Source: a phage. Taken from it: a stretch of DNA of 64,000 bases. The notes beneath the pieces are model-generated. The model saw only the letters and a program-made list of their open reading frames with translations. It did no database searches and was not told the DNA's origin. Both the position numbers and the translations under genes were made by a program. This document shows positions 13,167 to 42,006 of this stretch, one piece after another; the first letter of the stretch is position 1, and each line of letters starts with the position of its first letter. The stretch lies in sequence record PX969468.1. One strand, given 5' to 3'.

Positions 13167-13241
13167 GCCCTGTTAGCTTAGTGGATAAAGCAGCGGCCTT
13201 CTAAGCCGTTGACACTGGTTCGAGTCCAGTACGGGGTGCCA
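13167..13241 (+). tRNA. tRNA-Arg (anticodon TCT)
   Basis: hand-folded cloverleaf: acceptor GCCCTGT/ACGGGGT (two G-U), D-arm GCTT/AAGC, anticodon loop CTTCTAA, T-arm ACTGG-TTCGAGT-CCAGT, encoded CCA. Confidence 0.6.
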
Positions 13242-13245
13242 AATT

Positions 13246-13332
13246 GGGGAGTTATCCCGTAGAGGTAGCGGTGTAGACTGTAAATCTATTGTCATTGCGA
13301 CTCGGGTGGTTCGACTCCACCACTCCCCACCA
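13246..13332 (+). tRNA. tRNA-Tyr (anticodon GTA), long variable arm
   Basis: acceptor GGGGAGT/ACTCCCC, anticodon stem GTAGA/TCTAT with loop CTGTAAA, T-arm GGTGG-TTCGACT-CCACC, encoded CCA. Confidence 0.6.
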
Positions 13333-13446
13333 AATTTATATTTTTAAATGCATAAATCATACAGATAATGACATTGATATTTATCGTCGTTTATACTAGT
13401 CACTAACTGCTCGAAAATCAGTGTCATTATCAGTGTAATTTATAAA

Positions 13447-13537
13447 GGAGGGTAGGGAGCAATGGTGCTCAAGCGGTCTTGAAAACCGTCCCGTTGAGGA
13501 TGACTCGATGATGGTTCGATTCCATTACTCTCCGCCA
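13447..13537 (+). tRNA. tRNA-Ser (anticodon TGA), long variable arm
   Basis: acceptor GGAGGGT/ACTCTCC, anticodon stem-loop GCGGT-CTTGAAA-ACCGT, T-loop TTCGATT, encoded CCA. Confidence 0.55.
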
Positions 13538-13635
13538 CATTGTTGACCTTGTAATTAAGCGAAAGCCGGAAGCAGAACCGGATTATCAAATGTTACAGTC
13601 GTCATCGCCGACTAGCCACATGGTCAACATATTGC

Positions 13636-13735
13636 GCTAGGTAAGCCCTTTGGCAAGGGCGAGGATTTTTAATCCTGAAAATAGACGAGGTAGTCGTTGA
13701 ATACATAGGTGGTTCGATTCCATCACCTAGCACCT
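13636..13735 (+). pseudogene. atypical tRNA-like element (Lys-TTT-like 5' half, ~30-nt insert, no encoded CCA)
   Basis: perfect 7-bp acceptor GCTAGGT/ACCTAGC, D-arm GCCC/GGGC, anticodon-like loop TTTTTAA, T-arm GGTGG-TTCGATT-CCATC, but about 30 nt between anticodon arm and T-arm and CCT instead of CCA. Confidence 0.3.
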
Positions 13736-13738
13736 TTT

Positions 13739-13814
13739 GCTGATGTAGCACAATTGGCAGTGCAATTGATTTGTAATCAATAGGTTGCAGGTTCAAGTCC
13801 TGCCATCAGCACCA
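13739..13814 (+). tRNA. tRNA-Thr (anticodon TGT)
   Basis: perfect acceptor GCTGATG/CATCAGC, D-arm GCAC/GTGC, anticodon stem ATTGA/TCAAT loop TTTGTAA, T-arm GCAGG-TTCAAGT-CCTGC, encoded CCA. Confidence 0.7.
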
Positions 13815-13815
13815 T

Positions 13816-13890
13816 GGCCCTGTAGCTGGAAGGTTCAAGCAAGCGACTCATAATCGCCAGACGGTGGTTCAATTCCACCCAGGGCCACCA
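13816..13890 (+). tRNA. tRNA-Met or Ile2 (anticodon CAT)
   Basis: perfect acceptor GGCCCTG/CAGGGCC, anticodon loop CTCATAA, T-arm GGTGG-TTCAATT-CCACC, encoded CCA. Confidence 0.6.
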
Positions 13891-13901
13891 AATAATAAAT
13901 A

Positions 13902-13978
13902 CTCCGCGTAGCTCAGCTTGGTAGAGCGCCTGATTTGGGATCAGGAGGTCGAGTGTTCGAATCACTCCGTGGAGACCA
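13902..13978 (+). tRNA. tRNA-Pro (anticodon TGG)
   Basis: acceptor CTCCGCG/CGTGGAG, canonical D-arm GCTC-AGCTTGGTA-GAGC, anticodon stem CCTGA/TCAGG loop TTTGGGA, T-arm GAGTG-TTCGAAT-CACTC, encoded CCA. Confidence 0.7.
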
Positions 13979-14399: not shown

Positions 14400-14798
14400 A
14401 TGATTTCAGTCTTAACATTGATGAGTAAATACAGAGGGATCATAAAAGGTTTAGTTTTTGCAGCGGCTATAGGCATGGCTTATCTTGGGGCCGTGTATTG
14501 GTTTAACTCTAAGCTCAATGATGCTTATCAGGAAGGTGTGTCAGCAACAGAGTTAAAGTGGGAACGGATCCTTGACCAACAACAAAAGCAGGCCGACAAA
14601 ATTAAAATGGGCCACGCAGAGGAGGTTAAAAACCTTGAAAAATCTCTTTCTGATCTACAGGATAAATTAAATATGGCTGAGAAGGCAGGTAAAGAAAAGC
14701 AGATTATCTACCTCCAATCTCCTGAAGGTAAGAAGTCAACACTTCCTGATCAGCTAATAGATATTTATAATGAGAGTATCAATCAGGAGGTTCGATGA
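14400..14798 (+). CDS. i-spanin (Rz-like inner-membrane spanin)
   Basis: 132 codons; N-terminal TM segment GLVFAAAIGMAYLGAVYWF then coiled-coil-like periplasmic domain; stop overlaps start of next gene. Confidence 0.6.
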   Translation: MISVLTLMSKYRGIIKGLVFAAAIGMAYLGAVYWFNSKLNDAYQEGVSATELKWERILDQQQKQADKIKMGHAEEVKNLEKSLSDLQDKLNMAEKAGKEKQIIYLQSPEGKKSTLPDQLIDIYNESINQEVR

Positions 14799-15082
14799 GA
14801 GTTACTGCACTGGTTGTTTTGTGCTTGTTATTGTGTGGGTGTGCAACCAGCGTTGAGAGAGAATACAAGATTGACCCTCCGGATGTAGGAAGGTTGATTG
14901 TTAAACCTCCCGAGGGTGCTATGAAACCACCTGCTAAAGCTATCCCTTTGAAGAAAGGTGCGCCAGATGCGGTGAATTCTGGCATTATGAGGGATAATAA
15001 CCTGTCTTGTAGTAATGATAGAGCTAAATTGATCATTTTGCAAGACTATATAAGAACACTGTTTCCAAAGGAGAGAGGTTAA
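14795..15082 (+). CDS. o-spanin (Rz1-like outer-membrane lipoprotein)
   Basis: 95 codons; signal peptide with lipobox L-C-G-C, proline-rich mature part. Confidence 0.6.
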   Translation: MRVTALVVLCLLLCGCATSVEREYKIDPPDVGRLIVKPPEGAMKPPAKAIPLKKGAPDAVNSGIMRDNNLSCSNDRAKLIILQDYIRTLFPKERG

Positions 15083-15507
15083 TGTCTAAGATTTACGGAC
15101 CGTGTTCTGAAAAGCAGAAGATGATCCTAGAGAACGATGCAGATATTTTGGTGATCGGAGGTGCAGCTGGGTCTGGAAAGTCGTTCCTCTTGCAGCTAAT
15201 GCCACTTAAAATTATTGATGACCCACACAGCTCTGTGGTTATGTTCCGAAGAACAACTCCACAGTTGGAAGGTGAGGGTGGGCTATGGCCTAAAGCAGTA
15301 GCTATTTACAGTGATCTGCCTGAAAACATTAAACCAAAGTTCAGAGAGAAGGATCATAAGTTTATTTTTCCACGGTTTGATCCGAGCACTGGCAAGTGGG
15401 ACAGGAGCAAAAAAGGGGCCGTTGTAAAATACTGCCACATGGAGTATGTCCAAGATAAGCTTAACCATCAAGGCCTTGAGTACACCATGGTTTGCTTCGA
15501 TGAGGGT
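15082..15507 (+). CDS. terminase large subunit, exon 1 (ATPase domain)
   Basis: Walker A GGAAGSGKS and Walker B VCFDEG; reading frame stops at TAA immediately after DEG. Confidence 0.65.
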
Positions 15508-16390
15508 TAATTTGTAGCTCTCGTAAAACCTCCCTAATTGCGGGGAAATCTTTATTATTGACACCACCAACCTGTTATGGTAACATGATAGAGGCTTCGA
15601 AGAGAGATCGAAGGTATGGTAACAGTGTGTTGATTTAGATAATCCGCAGCGAAGCATCCGAGAGGATGAACGTTCAACGACTAGTCGAAAGACGTAGAAT
15701 CAAGCGATTCGAAACGGGAGGGTGAATGTGTAATACTAAAAAATGTATGGATTGCCAAAGAGTTCTACCTCTTGATGATTTCTTTTTATCATCTAAGAGC
15801 CAGGATGGATACTCAGGTACATGCAAGGAATGCTATATGTACTACAGGAAGAATGGATCTCGTAGAAACAAAAATATGGTTAAGAGAGATGATGCAGCAT
15901 CTTTTATTCAAGACTTACTGAAGAAAGGTGAGCTTTTTGAATGTAAATCTTGTCATGAAAGTATGCTTGCTGATAGTTTTTACACAAAACGCGACTATGG
16001 TAAAGTGTATCTAGTCACGAACAGGTGTAAGATGTGTGAAAAGTTTTATCAGATTGAGAAGAAATTTCACATAACAAAAGATGAATACTATCGTCTACTC
16101 TCAGATCAAGATCATAAGTGTGCAATCTGTAGAATATCTCTTGATGAGTATAAGACTCAAGGATATAGAGATTTCTTTTGTGTTGATCATGACCATAAAA
16201 CTGGTGCTGTAAGAGGGTTGCTTTGTGATAAATGCAACAGGGCTTTAGGTTTCTTCCAAGAGGATGAGGAAACCATTCTTAGAGCGGCAGAGTATTTACA
16301 CATTCATAAGATATAGTCTGGTCTGCATGGAGACATGCAGCTGCCTGAAAATGGCGGGGCAAGACTAGCGACCTTGCCCGAACATAAACG
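15508..16390 (+). mobile_element. group I-like intron carrying an HNH endonuclease gene, inserted in the terminase large-subunit gene
   Basis: P/Q/R-like core elements AATTGCGGGGA (15536..15546), AATCCGCAGC (15641..15650), GTTCAACGACTAG (15672..15684); possible guide GCTCTC (15517..15522) pairing with exon end GAGGGT; ends in G; 3' boundary could be 16387 or 16390. Confidence 0.55.
15726..16316 (+). CDS. HNH homing endonuclease (intron-encoded)
   Basis: 196 codons; GGGAGGG RBS; several CxxC pairs and HNH core CVDHDHKTGAVRGLLCDKCNRALG. Confidence 0.7.
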   Translation: MCNTKKCMDCQRVLPLDDFFLSSKSQDGYSGTCKECYMYYRKNGSRRNKNMVKRDDAASFIQDLLKKGELFECKSCHESMLADSFYTKRDYGKVYLVTNRCKMCEKFYQIEKKFHITKDEYYRLLSDQDHKCAICRISLDEYKTQGYRDFFCVDHDHKTGAVRGLLCDKCNRALGFFQEDEETILRAAEYLHIHKI

Positions 16391-17512
16391 ACGCAATTCG
16401 AATGGGAGCAGATAGACTATTTGATGTCTCGTCTGCGATCTCAGTCAAAGTATCCATCAAGAATGGTTATCAGCTGTAACCCCGACTCAGAACACATGCT
16501 TGCCAAACTGGTTAGGTGGTGGTTGGACGATGAAGGGTATCCAGATCCGGAGAAATGCGGTAAGAAAAGATATTTTATCCGACGCGACGGGGAATTTATC
16601 TGGGGAGATTCTAAAGAAGAGTTGATAGAGAAATACACCACGGTTAACGGACTTGGCGTAGAGATCAAGCCAAGACCGTTGTCATTCTCGTTCATAGGCG
16701 CAACAATATTCGATAATCCTGTCTGTTTGAGAGACAACCCAGAATACCTTGCTTTCCTCGAAGGTCTACCAGAGCTGGAAAAAGCTCAGCTTCTCCATGG
16801 TAACTGGTTTGCAAAGCCTGAGGGTGCAAACTATTTTCAAAGATCTTTCCTTCGTGATGCCGATAGAGTACCTCTTGGGTCAGTATCTTGCAGGGCATGG
16901 GATAAGGCAGGAACCGAGAGAACTTCCGGTAATAAATTTCCTGACTTTACTGCCAGTATTAAGGTAAGTAAAGATAGCGACGGATTTTATTACCTGTCCG
17001 GTGATTATTGTCCTGAGAACGTGGATGACGGGAGGTATTCCACAGGTCTGGAAGGCAAGTTCTGTAAAAAGGCTGGTGAACGAGATGTGATCATCAGGAA
17101 ACAGGCGCAGTTCGATGGTGATGATTGCATAATCGTCTTCTCTGTGGACCCAGGGCAGGCAGGTAAGAGTGAGTTCTTAACCTCCTCCAGATCCTTGCTT
17201 GCCGAAGGGTTCAGGGTTGAAGAAGACCCAATGCCTTCCAACAAGTCTAAACTGACAAGGTTCTCACCTTTTGCCAATCTTGCCCAACAAGGAATGGTGA
17301 GGATTGTAAAATCCAGTTTCCATCCTGATACTCTGGAAGCATTTCTGACTGAACTTGAAAAATTCAACGGGGAAAGATCAACATTTAACAGAAAAGACGA
17401 CTGGGCCGACTGCGTAGCTTCTGCGATTAATTTCCTGGAGAAAGAGGAGGTAGCACTTCCTTGTGTGATTCCATCAATCTCATCACCTTCTATGTTCAAG
17501 CGTTTTATCTAA
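16391..17512 (+). CDS. terminase large subunit, exon 2 (nuclease domain)
   Basis: in-frame continuation TQFEWEQIDYLMSRLRS without convincing start/RBS; joins exon 1 as ...VCFDEG|TQFEW... Confidence 0.55.
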   Translation, partial: TQFEWEQIDYLMSRLRSQSKYPSRMVISCNPDSEHMLAKLVRWWLDDEGYPDPEKCGKKRYFIRRDGEFIWGDSKEELIEKYTTVNGLGVEIKPRPLSFSFIGATIFDNPVCLRDNPEYLAFLEGLPELEKAQLLHGNWFAKPEGANYFQRSFLRDADRVPLGSVSCRAWDKAGTERTSGNKFPDFTASIKVSKDSDGFYYLSGDYCPENVDDGRYSTGLEGKFCKKAGERDVIIRKQAQFDGDDCIIVFSVDPGQAGKSEFLTSSRSLLAEGFRVEEDPMPSNKSKLTRFSPFANLAQQGMVRIVKSSFHPDTLEAFLTELEKFNGERSTFNRKDDWADCVASAINFLEKEEVALPCVIPSISSPSMFKRFI

Positions 17513-41415: not shown

Positions 41416-42006
41416 ATGTTTTTATGGGAAAGGCCTAGATACCTTCCAGATATTAGATTGGAGCTGCTGGCAGATATTGTTACGTTTAAAAGTCCGTTTA
41501 CAGGTAAAACGCAAAAAGTGACCTATGCCACACCTAACTGGAAAGGCACTTTGACGGTTTCCAATATCAGCGAGTCACAGCTGCTAGAGCTTAAGAGCTT
41601 TGTTGATCAGGTGTATAAAGATGGGAACATTTTTCTTATTAAAACGTACGGTCACTCAGTAACAGCTAATGAGCCAATCGCCCTTGGGCCTACTGGTAAC
41701 GACGATTTTTTGAAGACGGTCGGATGGGAGCCAAACAGAGACATAGCCAGAGCTGGGGATAAAATATCTGTCAATGATGAATTGAAAGTGGTAACAGCTC
41801 CAGTGCGCAGCGATGGTGTTGGGTCTGCTGTCATAAGCATATCCCCAAGACTTAGAAAACCTATTGCCGCAGGGGACACTATGAAGATAATAACTCAATC
41901 CCCAAAGGGTAGGTTTCATATCAGAGATATTTATAAAATTAAGCAAAAAGTCGATGCTATGCAAAAAGGTGATAATATAGTTATCAACTTCTTTGAGGAT
42001 TTCTAA
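41416..42006 (+). CDS. tail tip/baseplate assembly protein (tentative)
   Basis: 196 codons; GGAGG RBS; first of three small genes preceding the J-like gene. Confidence 0.35.
   Translation: MFLWERPRYLPDIRLELLADIVTFKSPFTGKTQKVTYATPNWKGTLTVSNISESQLLELKSFVDQVYKDGNIFLIKTYGHSVTANEPIALGPTGNDDFLKTVGWEPNRDIARAGDKISVNDELKVVTAPVRSDGVGSAVISISPRLRKPIAAGDTMKIITQSPKGRFHIRDIYKIKQKVDAMQKGDNIVINFFEDF

Follow-up and report, generated by a model that had tools for sequence, protein, structure and literature searches.

A group I intron carrying a putative homing endonuclease of the endonuclease VII-motif family in the terminase gene of an rV5-like Vequintavirus

An intron in the terminase large-subunit gene (terL) is already published and annotated for the genus Vequintavirus. 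The rV5 genome paper contains a section entitled "Introns in terminase" (Kropinski et al. 2013, PMC3606486), the GenBank entry for rV5 (DQ832317) joins three terL segments as ORF64ABC, and the records of the BASEL vequintaviruses (e.g. MZ501111, WalterGehring) have a joined terL coding sequence with a "putative homing endonuclease" inside it. The locus described here lies in a 64,000-nucleotide stretch of phage DNA (record PX969468.1; hereafter the window), which is Vequintavirus DNA of an rV5-like coliphage (97.6% identical to rV5_ev146 over 2.6 kb), and it has its genus, gene, insertion site and intron in common with rV5 and the BASEL phages. The differences are not essential ones: the first terL intron of rV5 (intron 1) is a 319-nt form free of any open reading frame (ORF), whereas the window form is 883 nt long and contains an ORF; rV5 and HdK5 also carry a second terL intron, after approximately nt 741 of the coding sequence, that is absent from the window, and exon 1 of the window belongs to a haplotype different from those of the rV5 and BASEL intron-bearing alleles. 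A literature search turned up no experiment showing splicing directly, either of this intron or in any other Vequintavirus, the rV5 paper resting on BLASTX, and splicing of the Vequintavirus terL intron is here predicted from the sequence.

Group I introns with or without an endonuclease ORF interrupt the packaging ATPase gene of other phages as they do here. Examples are the terL introns of Lactobacillus phage LL-H (Mikkonen and Alatossava 1995, as cited in PMC3606486), of Certrevirus CB7, where splicing occurs in vivo as seen by RT-PCR (PMC7344957), and of the Bastillevirinae phage SIOphi, where splicing was shown experimentally (PMC11878797). The LL-H and SIOphi introns are located in terminases unrelated to that of the window; the CB7 intron is related, sits 6 nt upstream (between GVD and EGTQF, compared with FDEG and TQF in the window), and carries another HNH ORF, placed in another loop. 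PhiPA3 resembles the window in having an endonuclease encoded by an intron of an essential gene, and this endonuclease, gp210, has been shown to mediate interference competition against co-infecting PhiKZ (Science 2024, PMC11620839), and the phiKZ-type intron of fnug is ~73% identical to the window intron over the 3′ 190 nt. The F-CphI paper (Mob DNA 2018, PMC6083498) includes the "Escherichia phage 2 JES-2013" ortholog of the window endonuclease among Endo VII-motif proteins encoded by introns, and JES2013 carries the same intron as the window. The F-CphI family and the window enzyme have the C-terminal Endo VII motif (CxxC, DHDH, CxxC-N) in common, but F-CphI is free-standing and adjoins the psbA intron site of cyanophage S-PM2, whereas the window enzyme is encoded inside the intron, in loop L8, and has an N-terminal part with two zinc-ribbon-like modules.

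The phage IA-type core is also shared with the td, nrdB and nrdD introns of T4 (IA2; I-TevI, I-TevII and I-TevIII), with the window intron ~72% similar to the T4 nrdB intron core and ~82% similar to the 3′ regions of other T-even introns. Like them, it has an in-frame stop just inside the intron and an endonuclease ORF looped out from the core, and is optional among relatives; it differs in host gene, in endonuclease family and in the position of the ORF, which in the window is P8. For the T4 introns it is documented that RNA structure controls translation of the ORF, whereas for the window intron such control is suggested by the overlap between the ribosome-binding site of the ORF and P3.

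The two terL exons, the intron, its helices and the endonuclease gene all lie on the plus strand of the window. The ORF containing exon 1 (15082..15510, 142 aa, with GGAAGSGKS and VCFDEG) stops at the TAA at 15508-15510, directly past the Walker B codons, as read in the initial annotation, whose coordinates are correct throughout. The downstream frame opens past a TAA at 16385-87, reads TQFEWEQIDYLMSRLRS from 16391 and stops at 17510-12. The earliest start-type codons in this frame are TTG 16421 and ATG 16424, neither of which has a well-spaced ribosome-binding site, the sole purine-rich stretch before ATG 16424 being GGGAG, ~16 nt upstream; this agrees with the earlier reading that the second frame, from about 16391, has no convincing start of its own. 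Exon 1 (15082..15507; 142 codons, with Walker A GGAAGSGKS and Walker B VCFDEG, ending at U15507) and exon 2 (16391..17512; 373 codons plus stop, encoding the remainder of the ATPase domain together with the RNaseH-like nuclease domain) are both collinear with the intron-less terL of FV3. When 15082-15507 is joined to 16391-17512, the resulting 1548 nt equal the length of the intron-less terL genes of FV3, ime, EduardKellenberger, Murica, ev156 (rV5_ev156) and CM1, and the joined gene is 96% identical to FV3 terL, with 59 nt differences that are mostly at third codon positions and cause two amino-acid changes (protein identity 99.6%). Pfam searches assigned contiguous parts of the profiles to the two exons, with exon 1 matching Terminase_6N positions 2-104 and exon 2 matching positions 111-211 plus Terminase_6C; the two domains of a T4-type terminase large subunit (Terminase_6N and Terminase_6C) are contiguous in one polypeptide once the exons are joined. 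The insertion point follows the Walker B codons (FDEG) and precedes TQFEW. The comparison with intron-less terminases of related phages, which the initial annotation had proposed, bears out its claim of an interrupted terminase: the precise deletion seen in these alleles fixes the junction at 15507/16391, removal of 15508-16390 gives the matching 1548-nt length, and the frame is restored only by that removal.

The Rfam group I intron model RF00028, proposed for a search of this region, aligned end to end (model positions 1-253) to 15498-16340 with 48.3 bits and E-values of 5.5e-11 locally and 3.2e-9 over the whole window, a group I match that is far beyond chance. There was no further group I match anywhere in the window with RF00028 and E-value reporting; at gathering thresholds the whole-window Rfam search returned tRNAs only, the group I intron being seen only with E-value thresholds. 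The gathering score of RF00028 is 50 bits, and the copy at 15508-16390 falls 1.7 bits short of it because the 582-nt insert (the ORF) in P8 is penalised, which is the sole cause of the lowered score. In its 319-nt ORF-less form, the same intron reaches 84.0 bits in magaca and 84.9 bits in rV5; this form, which is also present in RudolfGeigy, is at least 98% identical to the 883-nt copy outside P8, with three substitutions outside P8 relative to magaca. The conserved P3-P9 core of RF00028 is thus present in the window copy at 48.3 bits and in its ORF-less ortholog at 84.0-84.9 bits. The covariance-model match, the precise-deletion comparison and the covariation described below together support the original proposal that the element is a group I intron.

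The intron (15508..16390, 883 nt) begins with the in-frame stop UAA 15508-10 as its first three bases. In the Rfam alignment and the minimum free energy (MFE) fold, P1 (15500..15524) pairs exon AUGAGGGU and intron UA (15500-09) with the internal guide UAGCUCUCGU (15515-24), and the 5′ splice site is marked by a U15507·G15517 wobble within this 10-bp helix, in keeping with the splice-site rule for group I introns; the guide GCTCTC (15517-22) that had been proposed to pair with the exon end takes part in this helix. The base at -1 is U in 6/6 intron-bearing alleles (GGT at the junction) and C or A in 8/8 intron-less alleles (GGC or GGA), and this U could be a trace of co-conversion and not a splicing requirement. 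At the other end, the 3′ tail (16380..16390), GAACAUAAACG, finishes with G16390 (omega-G), the terminal G that had been noted at the outset; this boundary was taken from the intron-less alleles, homologous introns also end in G there, and excision restores the exon frame exactly, collinear with six intron-less terL genes. A 3-bp P10 between exon ACG 16391-93 and UGU 15513-15 is possible. An alternative junction at 15506/16390 leaves the protein unchanged but breaks the U and omega-G rules of group I introns, and was rejected.

The RF00028 alignment places the three short core motifs picked out by the initial annotation on J3/4-P4 (AATTGCGGGGA, 15536-46), on P4′-P6 (AATCCGCAGC, 15641-50) and on J6/7-P7 (GTTCAACGACTAG, 15672-84). 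P2 is absent. The 5′ strand of P3 (CCUCCC, 15529..15534) pairs with the 3′ strand at 15716..15721 (GGGAGG), and this helix is 100% paired in the 12 homologs (described below), with compensatory change at three pairs. The P4-P6 domain (15535..15673) consists of J3/4, P4 (15539-44/15643-48), P5 with a long extension (15548-15640), P6 (15649-50/15672-73) and the P6a hairpin (15655-68), which has a GAGA loop; in the P5 extension, both substitutions relative to magaca turn an A-U pair into G·U and pairing is kept. J6/7 and the 5′ strand of P7 (15674..15683; A15677, bulged C15678 and G15679-A15683) match the Rfam consensus GUUCAaAGACUA and are invariant in the 12 homologs, as are J8/7 and the 3′ strand of P7 (16308..16319; AAGAUA plus UAGUCU), for which the Rfam consensus is AGAUAUAGUCu. 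P7 is formed by A15677-U16319, followed by G15679-C16318 through A15683-U16314, with C15678 bulged, so that the P3/P7 pseudoknot is present and G15679-C16318 occupies the usual guanosine-binding position. The initial annotation had instead taken CTAGCG (16365-70) as the partner strand of P7, a claim that fell: the Rfam alignment and the 12 homologs put this strand at UAGUCU (16314-19), within the invariant AAGAUAUAGUCU, and CTAGCG is part of the conserved loop of P9.2, whose surrounding stem covaries.

Between P7 and the 3′ strand of P3 there are two hairpins, P7.1 (15684-93, GUC-GAAA-GAC) and P7.2 (15697-15710, GAAUC-AAGC-GAUUC), both found in the MFE fold and both with compensatory changes in homologs. 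P8 (15722..16307) has a stem of 15722-37 and 16291-16307 that loops out the endonuclease ORF as L8, according to the alignments to magaca and Rfam and to the fold; ORF-less copies have an 18-nt hairpin, AAGCGGUUGUUGUCGCUU, at P8, in place of which the 883-nt form has a new P8 stem and the ORF. Downstream are the P9 hairpin (16323..16340, CUGCAUG-GAGA-CAUGCAG, four pairs with compensatory change), P9.1 (16341-45/16353-57) and P9.2 (16357-63/16373-79, with the conserved loop ACUAGCGAC), the latter two predicted by folding. Among the introns of fnug, TimeGriffin and jumbo phages, the stems of P9.1 and P9.2 covary while the sequence of the P9.2 loop is conserved. Subgroup IA of Michel and Westhof reportedly has extra hairpins P7.1/P7.2 between P7 and the 3′ strand of P3, and P9.1/P9.2 downstream of P9. 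With P7.1/P7.2 and P9.1/P9.2 both present, the intron is of IA type (IA2-like phage introns), as classed by its helix layout against the subgroup definitions.

Covariation was assessed in an alignment of 12 related introns, namely those of magaca, Avunavirus Av-05, the phiKZ-type phage fnug and TimeGriffin (a Bacillus phage nrdE intron), together with eight metagenomic introns, most of them from ~250 kb contigs. The Av-05 intron is ~74% identical and is inserted at the same site, after FDEG; it was usable only up to P9 because the remainder is inverted in its record. With the structure derived from one aligned sequence, the helices were paired in 91.7% of cells across the 12 introns, compared with 34-47% in controls in which the partner strand was slid; by the same structure, both sides had changed at 27 pairs compared with 2-10 in the slid controls, and the covariation score was 0.343 compared with 0.07-0.09. 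Compensatory changes were seen in P3, P5, P6a, P7.1, P9, P9.1 and P9.2 of the 12 introns. As P7 is invariant in these homologs, no covariation is countable there.

The endonuclease ORF (15726..16316) encodes 196 aa and follows GGGAGG, with its AUG 4 nt downstream. Both ends of the gene draw on the ribozyme core: the 3′ strand of P3 doubles as its Shine-Dalgarno sequence, its start lies in the 5′ strand of P8, and J8/7 and the 3′ strand of P7 supply the final three codons and the stop (UAG 16314-16). The initial annotation had described an HNH endonuclease gene with its own ribosome-binding site, placed in a peripheral loop of the intron. The ORF, the GGGAGG and the location stand, the Rfam alignment looping the ORF out of P8, but the family does not: Pfam gives Endonuclease_7 (PF02945) with 76.2 bits against a cut-off of 23.6, and Endonuclease_7 alone, with no HNH-type domain matched at E-values up to 0.01. 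Matches in PHROG were to endonuclease VII families, and matches in the PDB were to Hpy99I (3fc3, E 1.8e-5) and T4 Endo VII (1e7d, E 4.8e-4), with catalytic and zinc residues aligned. Specifically, C132/C135/C167/C170, D154-H155-D156-H157 and N171 align to C23/C26/C58/C61, D40-H43 and N62 of T4 Endo VII. The conservation of these catalytic and zinc residues in the C-terminal half places the enzyme in the Endo VII-motif family defined by F-CphI and not among HNH enzymes in the narrow sense. The beta-beta-alpha-Me fold class is common to Endo VII-motif and HNH enzymes, and the label "HNH" is acceptable only in that broad usage. The N-terminal half has two CxxC...CxxC modules (C7/C10/C33/C36 and C73/C76/C101/C104), which presumably bind DNA. 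The window contains a second ORF of 196 aa (41416-42006), which is unrelated to the intron endonuclease. Within the intron, a sigma70-like promoter sequence (15558-86, 10/12 matches) could speculatively drive expression of the endonuclease, but such sites, at 9, are no more numerous than in shuffles (6.7 ± 2.8), and ORF-less copies have this one too.

The distribution of the intron was examined in a spread sample of 50 full-length vequintavirus terL genes. Introns were absent from 22 of these; intron 1 was present alone in its ORF-less form in 9 and alone with the endonuclease ORF in another 9, intron 2 was present alone in 4, and 6 genes had both introns. Counting the genes with both, intron 1 was ORF-less in 12 of the 50 and contained the endonuclease ORF in 12. 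Intron 2 likewise belongs to group I (Rfam 93-96 bits) and measures 267 nt without an ORF and 979 nt with an I-HmuI-like HNH ORF. The 883-nt form of intron 1 is identical in WalterGehring, JES2013 and others, with the same endonuclease at 96-98% identity, and the plaque-forming BASEL isolates WalterGehring, MaxBurger, DrSchubert and HeinrichReichert have this exact arrangement. A role of the nuclease as a terminase helper, after the HNH-terminase idea of Kala et al. as cited in PMC7344957, was considered and set aside, as half of the close relatives are without the ORF or the whole intron. Exon 1 of the window and the first 74 nt of exon 2 represent the haplotype of EduardKellenberger and WM, both of which are without intron 1, with 6-7 mismatches in the 426 nt of exon 1 and 0 in the 74 nt of exon 2; the remaining intron-1 alleles differ from the window exon 1 at 24-27 positions. 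Intron 1 is thus found in more than one exon background, and the converted flanks are very short, as homing and recombination would be expected to produce; this mosaic and the presence/absence polymorphism are indirect support for homing.

We consider it highly probable (roughly 93%) that terL of this rV5-like Vequintavirus is interrupted at 15508-16390 by a mobile, optional group I intron with a homing endonuclease gene in L8, and that excision at the RNA level yields TerL. In the proposed mechanism, terL would be transcribed as a precursor RNA on which ribosomes translating exon 1 would halt at once at the UAA of the first intron bases. The precursor would fold into P1-P9.2, external guanosine would attack past U15507, held by U15507·G15517 in P1, and the terminal G16390 would then enter the P7 site, with exon joining giving a 1548-nt mRNA and a TerL of 515 aa. 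The 196-aa Endo VII-motif enzyme would act as the homing endonuclease, cutting the intron-less terL of relatives that infect the same cell, and repair templated by the intron-bearing allele would spread the intron.

A different account of the same arrangement is that a free-standing endonuclease gene has been inserted into terL, and that polypeptides of 142 aa and ~363 aa assemble into a working terminase without any RNA splicing. Many GenBank records do give two "terminase large subunit" coding sequences around the endonuclease, and an ATG is available at 16424; but the annotations with two coding sequences come from automatic calling, the segments are joined in curated records, and the ATG has no well-placed ribosome-binding site and would cost 11 residues (TQFEWEQIDYL) that are found in the uninterrupted protein of intron-less alleles. 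The insert itself has a complete group I core with boundaries that follow group I rules (U·G at -1, terminal G), and its ORF-less form persists in relatives at 84-85 bits. A split terminase of this kind is therefore most improbable.

It is likewise very unlikely that the intron has decayed, such that the large P8 ORF or mutations have left a ribozyme that no longer self-splices and either needs host or phage factors or leaves terL poorly expressed. The RF00028 score under the gathering threshold would fit such a loss, some phage introns splice in vivo and not in vitro (PMC11878797), and one CB7 intron failed to splice. Against this, the core hardly differs from that of ORF-less copies, and in the P5 extension the substituted positions are still paired. 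The plaque-forming phages named above, moreover, share the exact arrangement, and terL is essential for packaging.

If the excised group I intron is accepted, the overlaps of the endonuclease gene with the ribozyme have a consequence of their own. With the ribosome-binding site in the 3′ strand of P3, the start in P8 and the stop in the 3′ strand of P7, a single RNA molecule should be able either to be translated into endonuclease or to adopt the ribozyme fold, but not both at once. A more speculative extension, which we consider less likely than not, is that this amounts to a switch, in which each precursor either folds and becomes terminase mRNA or is translated into endonuclease and is not spliced, and that the enzyme may be a weapon that cuts the packaging gene of co-infecting intron-less vequintaviruses. 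By analogy with PhiPA3 gp210, such a competitive role for the window endonuclease is possible.

The finding of the terL intron opens no new question. It provides a check on annotation, as many GenBank records list two "terminase large subunit" genes and a "recombination endonuclease VII" for what would be one spliced gene with an intron-borne homing endonuclease. It would also be a further instance of an essential late gene that needs RNA self-splicing to be expressed. Near-identical phages differ at this locus, having no intron, the intron with or without its ORF, or a second intron, and the locus is therefore a convenient natural system for the study of homing and of competition between phages.

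The terL gene of the window is directly preceded by an i-spanin gene (14400-14798, + strand) and an o-spanin gene (14795-15082, + strand; lipobox LLCGC), and the stop codon of the latter overlaps the terL start. The o-spanin is wrongly named 'putative large terminase subunit' in several GenBank records. A tRNA cluster at 13167-13978 has the order Arg, Tyr, Ser, ?, Thr, Met, Pro, and includes a 99 nt tRNA-like gene (13636-13734, + strand) found with both ARAGORN and the Rfam tRNA model; ARAGORN reports it as 'tRNA-???' with a 4-base anticodon, and the Rfam score is just 35.5 bits. Its variable arm is long, and its anticodon loop is U-rich and atypical.

Inside the terL intron of the window, a sigma70-like promoter match (15558-15586, + strand; TTGACA, 17 nt, TG-TAACAT, 10/12) is located within the P5 extension, 5′ of the endonuclease ORF, in a region where the count of sigma70-like sites is no higher than in shuffled sequences. 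A transcript initiated from this candidate promoter would lack the 5′ strand of P3, which would free the ribosome-binding site of the endonuclease ORF.

Matches to the window included 18 GenBank records (MG0656xx; H12-H14, H18-H21, H91, H93, H201 and others among the matches) that are titled 'Campylobacter phage' with Campylobacter jejuni as host. Measured over terL and the intron, these records share 96-100% identity with E. coli vequintaviruses, which suggests a problem with their stated host or label. In Escherichia phage Av-05 (NC_025830; terL elements in terL regions L014, at 381-1777, and L017), Walker A is interrupted by an intein (GGAAG|CLSKDHE...VVTGN|SGKS), and a group I intron ~74% identical to that of the window occupies the same FDEG| site. 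Exon 2 of Av-05 terL is annotated on the opposite strand and adjoins a reverse-oriented group I core, an arrangement more likely to reflect misassembly than a real inversion.

Some vequintavirus terL genes carry a second group I intron (intron 2), inserted after approximately nt 741 of the coding sequence and not present in the window. Copies were located in four terL regions of related phages (L003 1643-2621, L004 2207-3185, L011 1163-1430 and L012 844-1109, internal coordinates); intron 2 is 267 nt without an ORF (93-96 bits, Rfam) and 979 nt with an I-HmuI-like HNH ORF.

The terL intron of Pectobacterium phage CB7 (L030 372-1350), for which splicing has been shown experimentally (PMC7344957), resembles the window's intron in its P9-P9.2 region. 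Its insertion site (GVD|EGTQF) is 6 nt upstream of that in the window, and its HNH ORF is different and placed further 5′ in the core. The two introns thus seem to mark independent invasions of the Walker B region of terL at adjacent positions.
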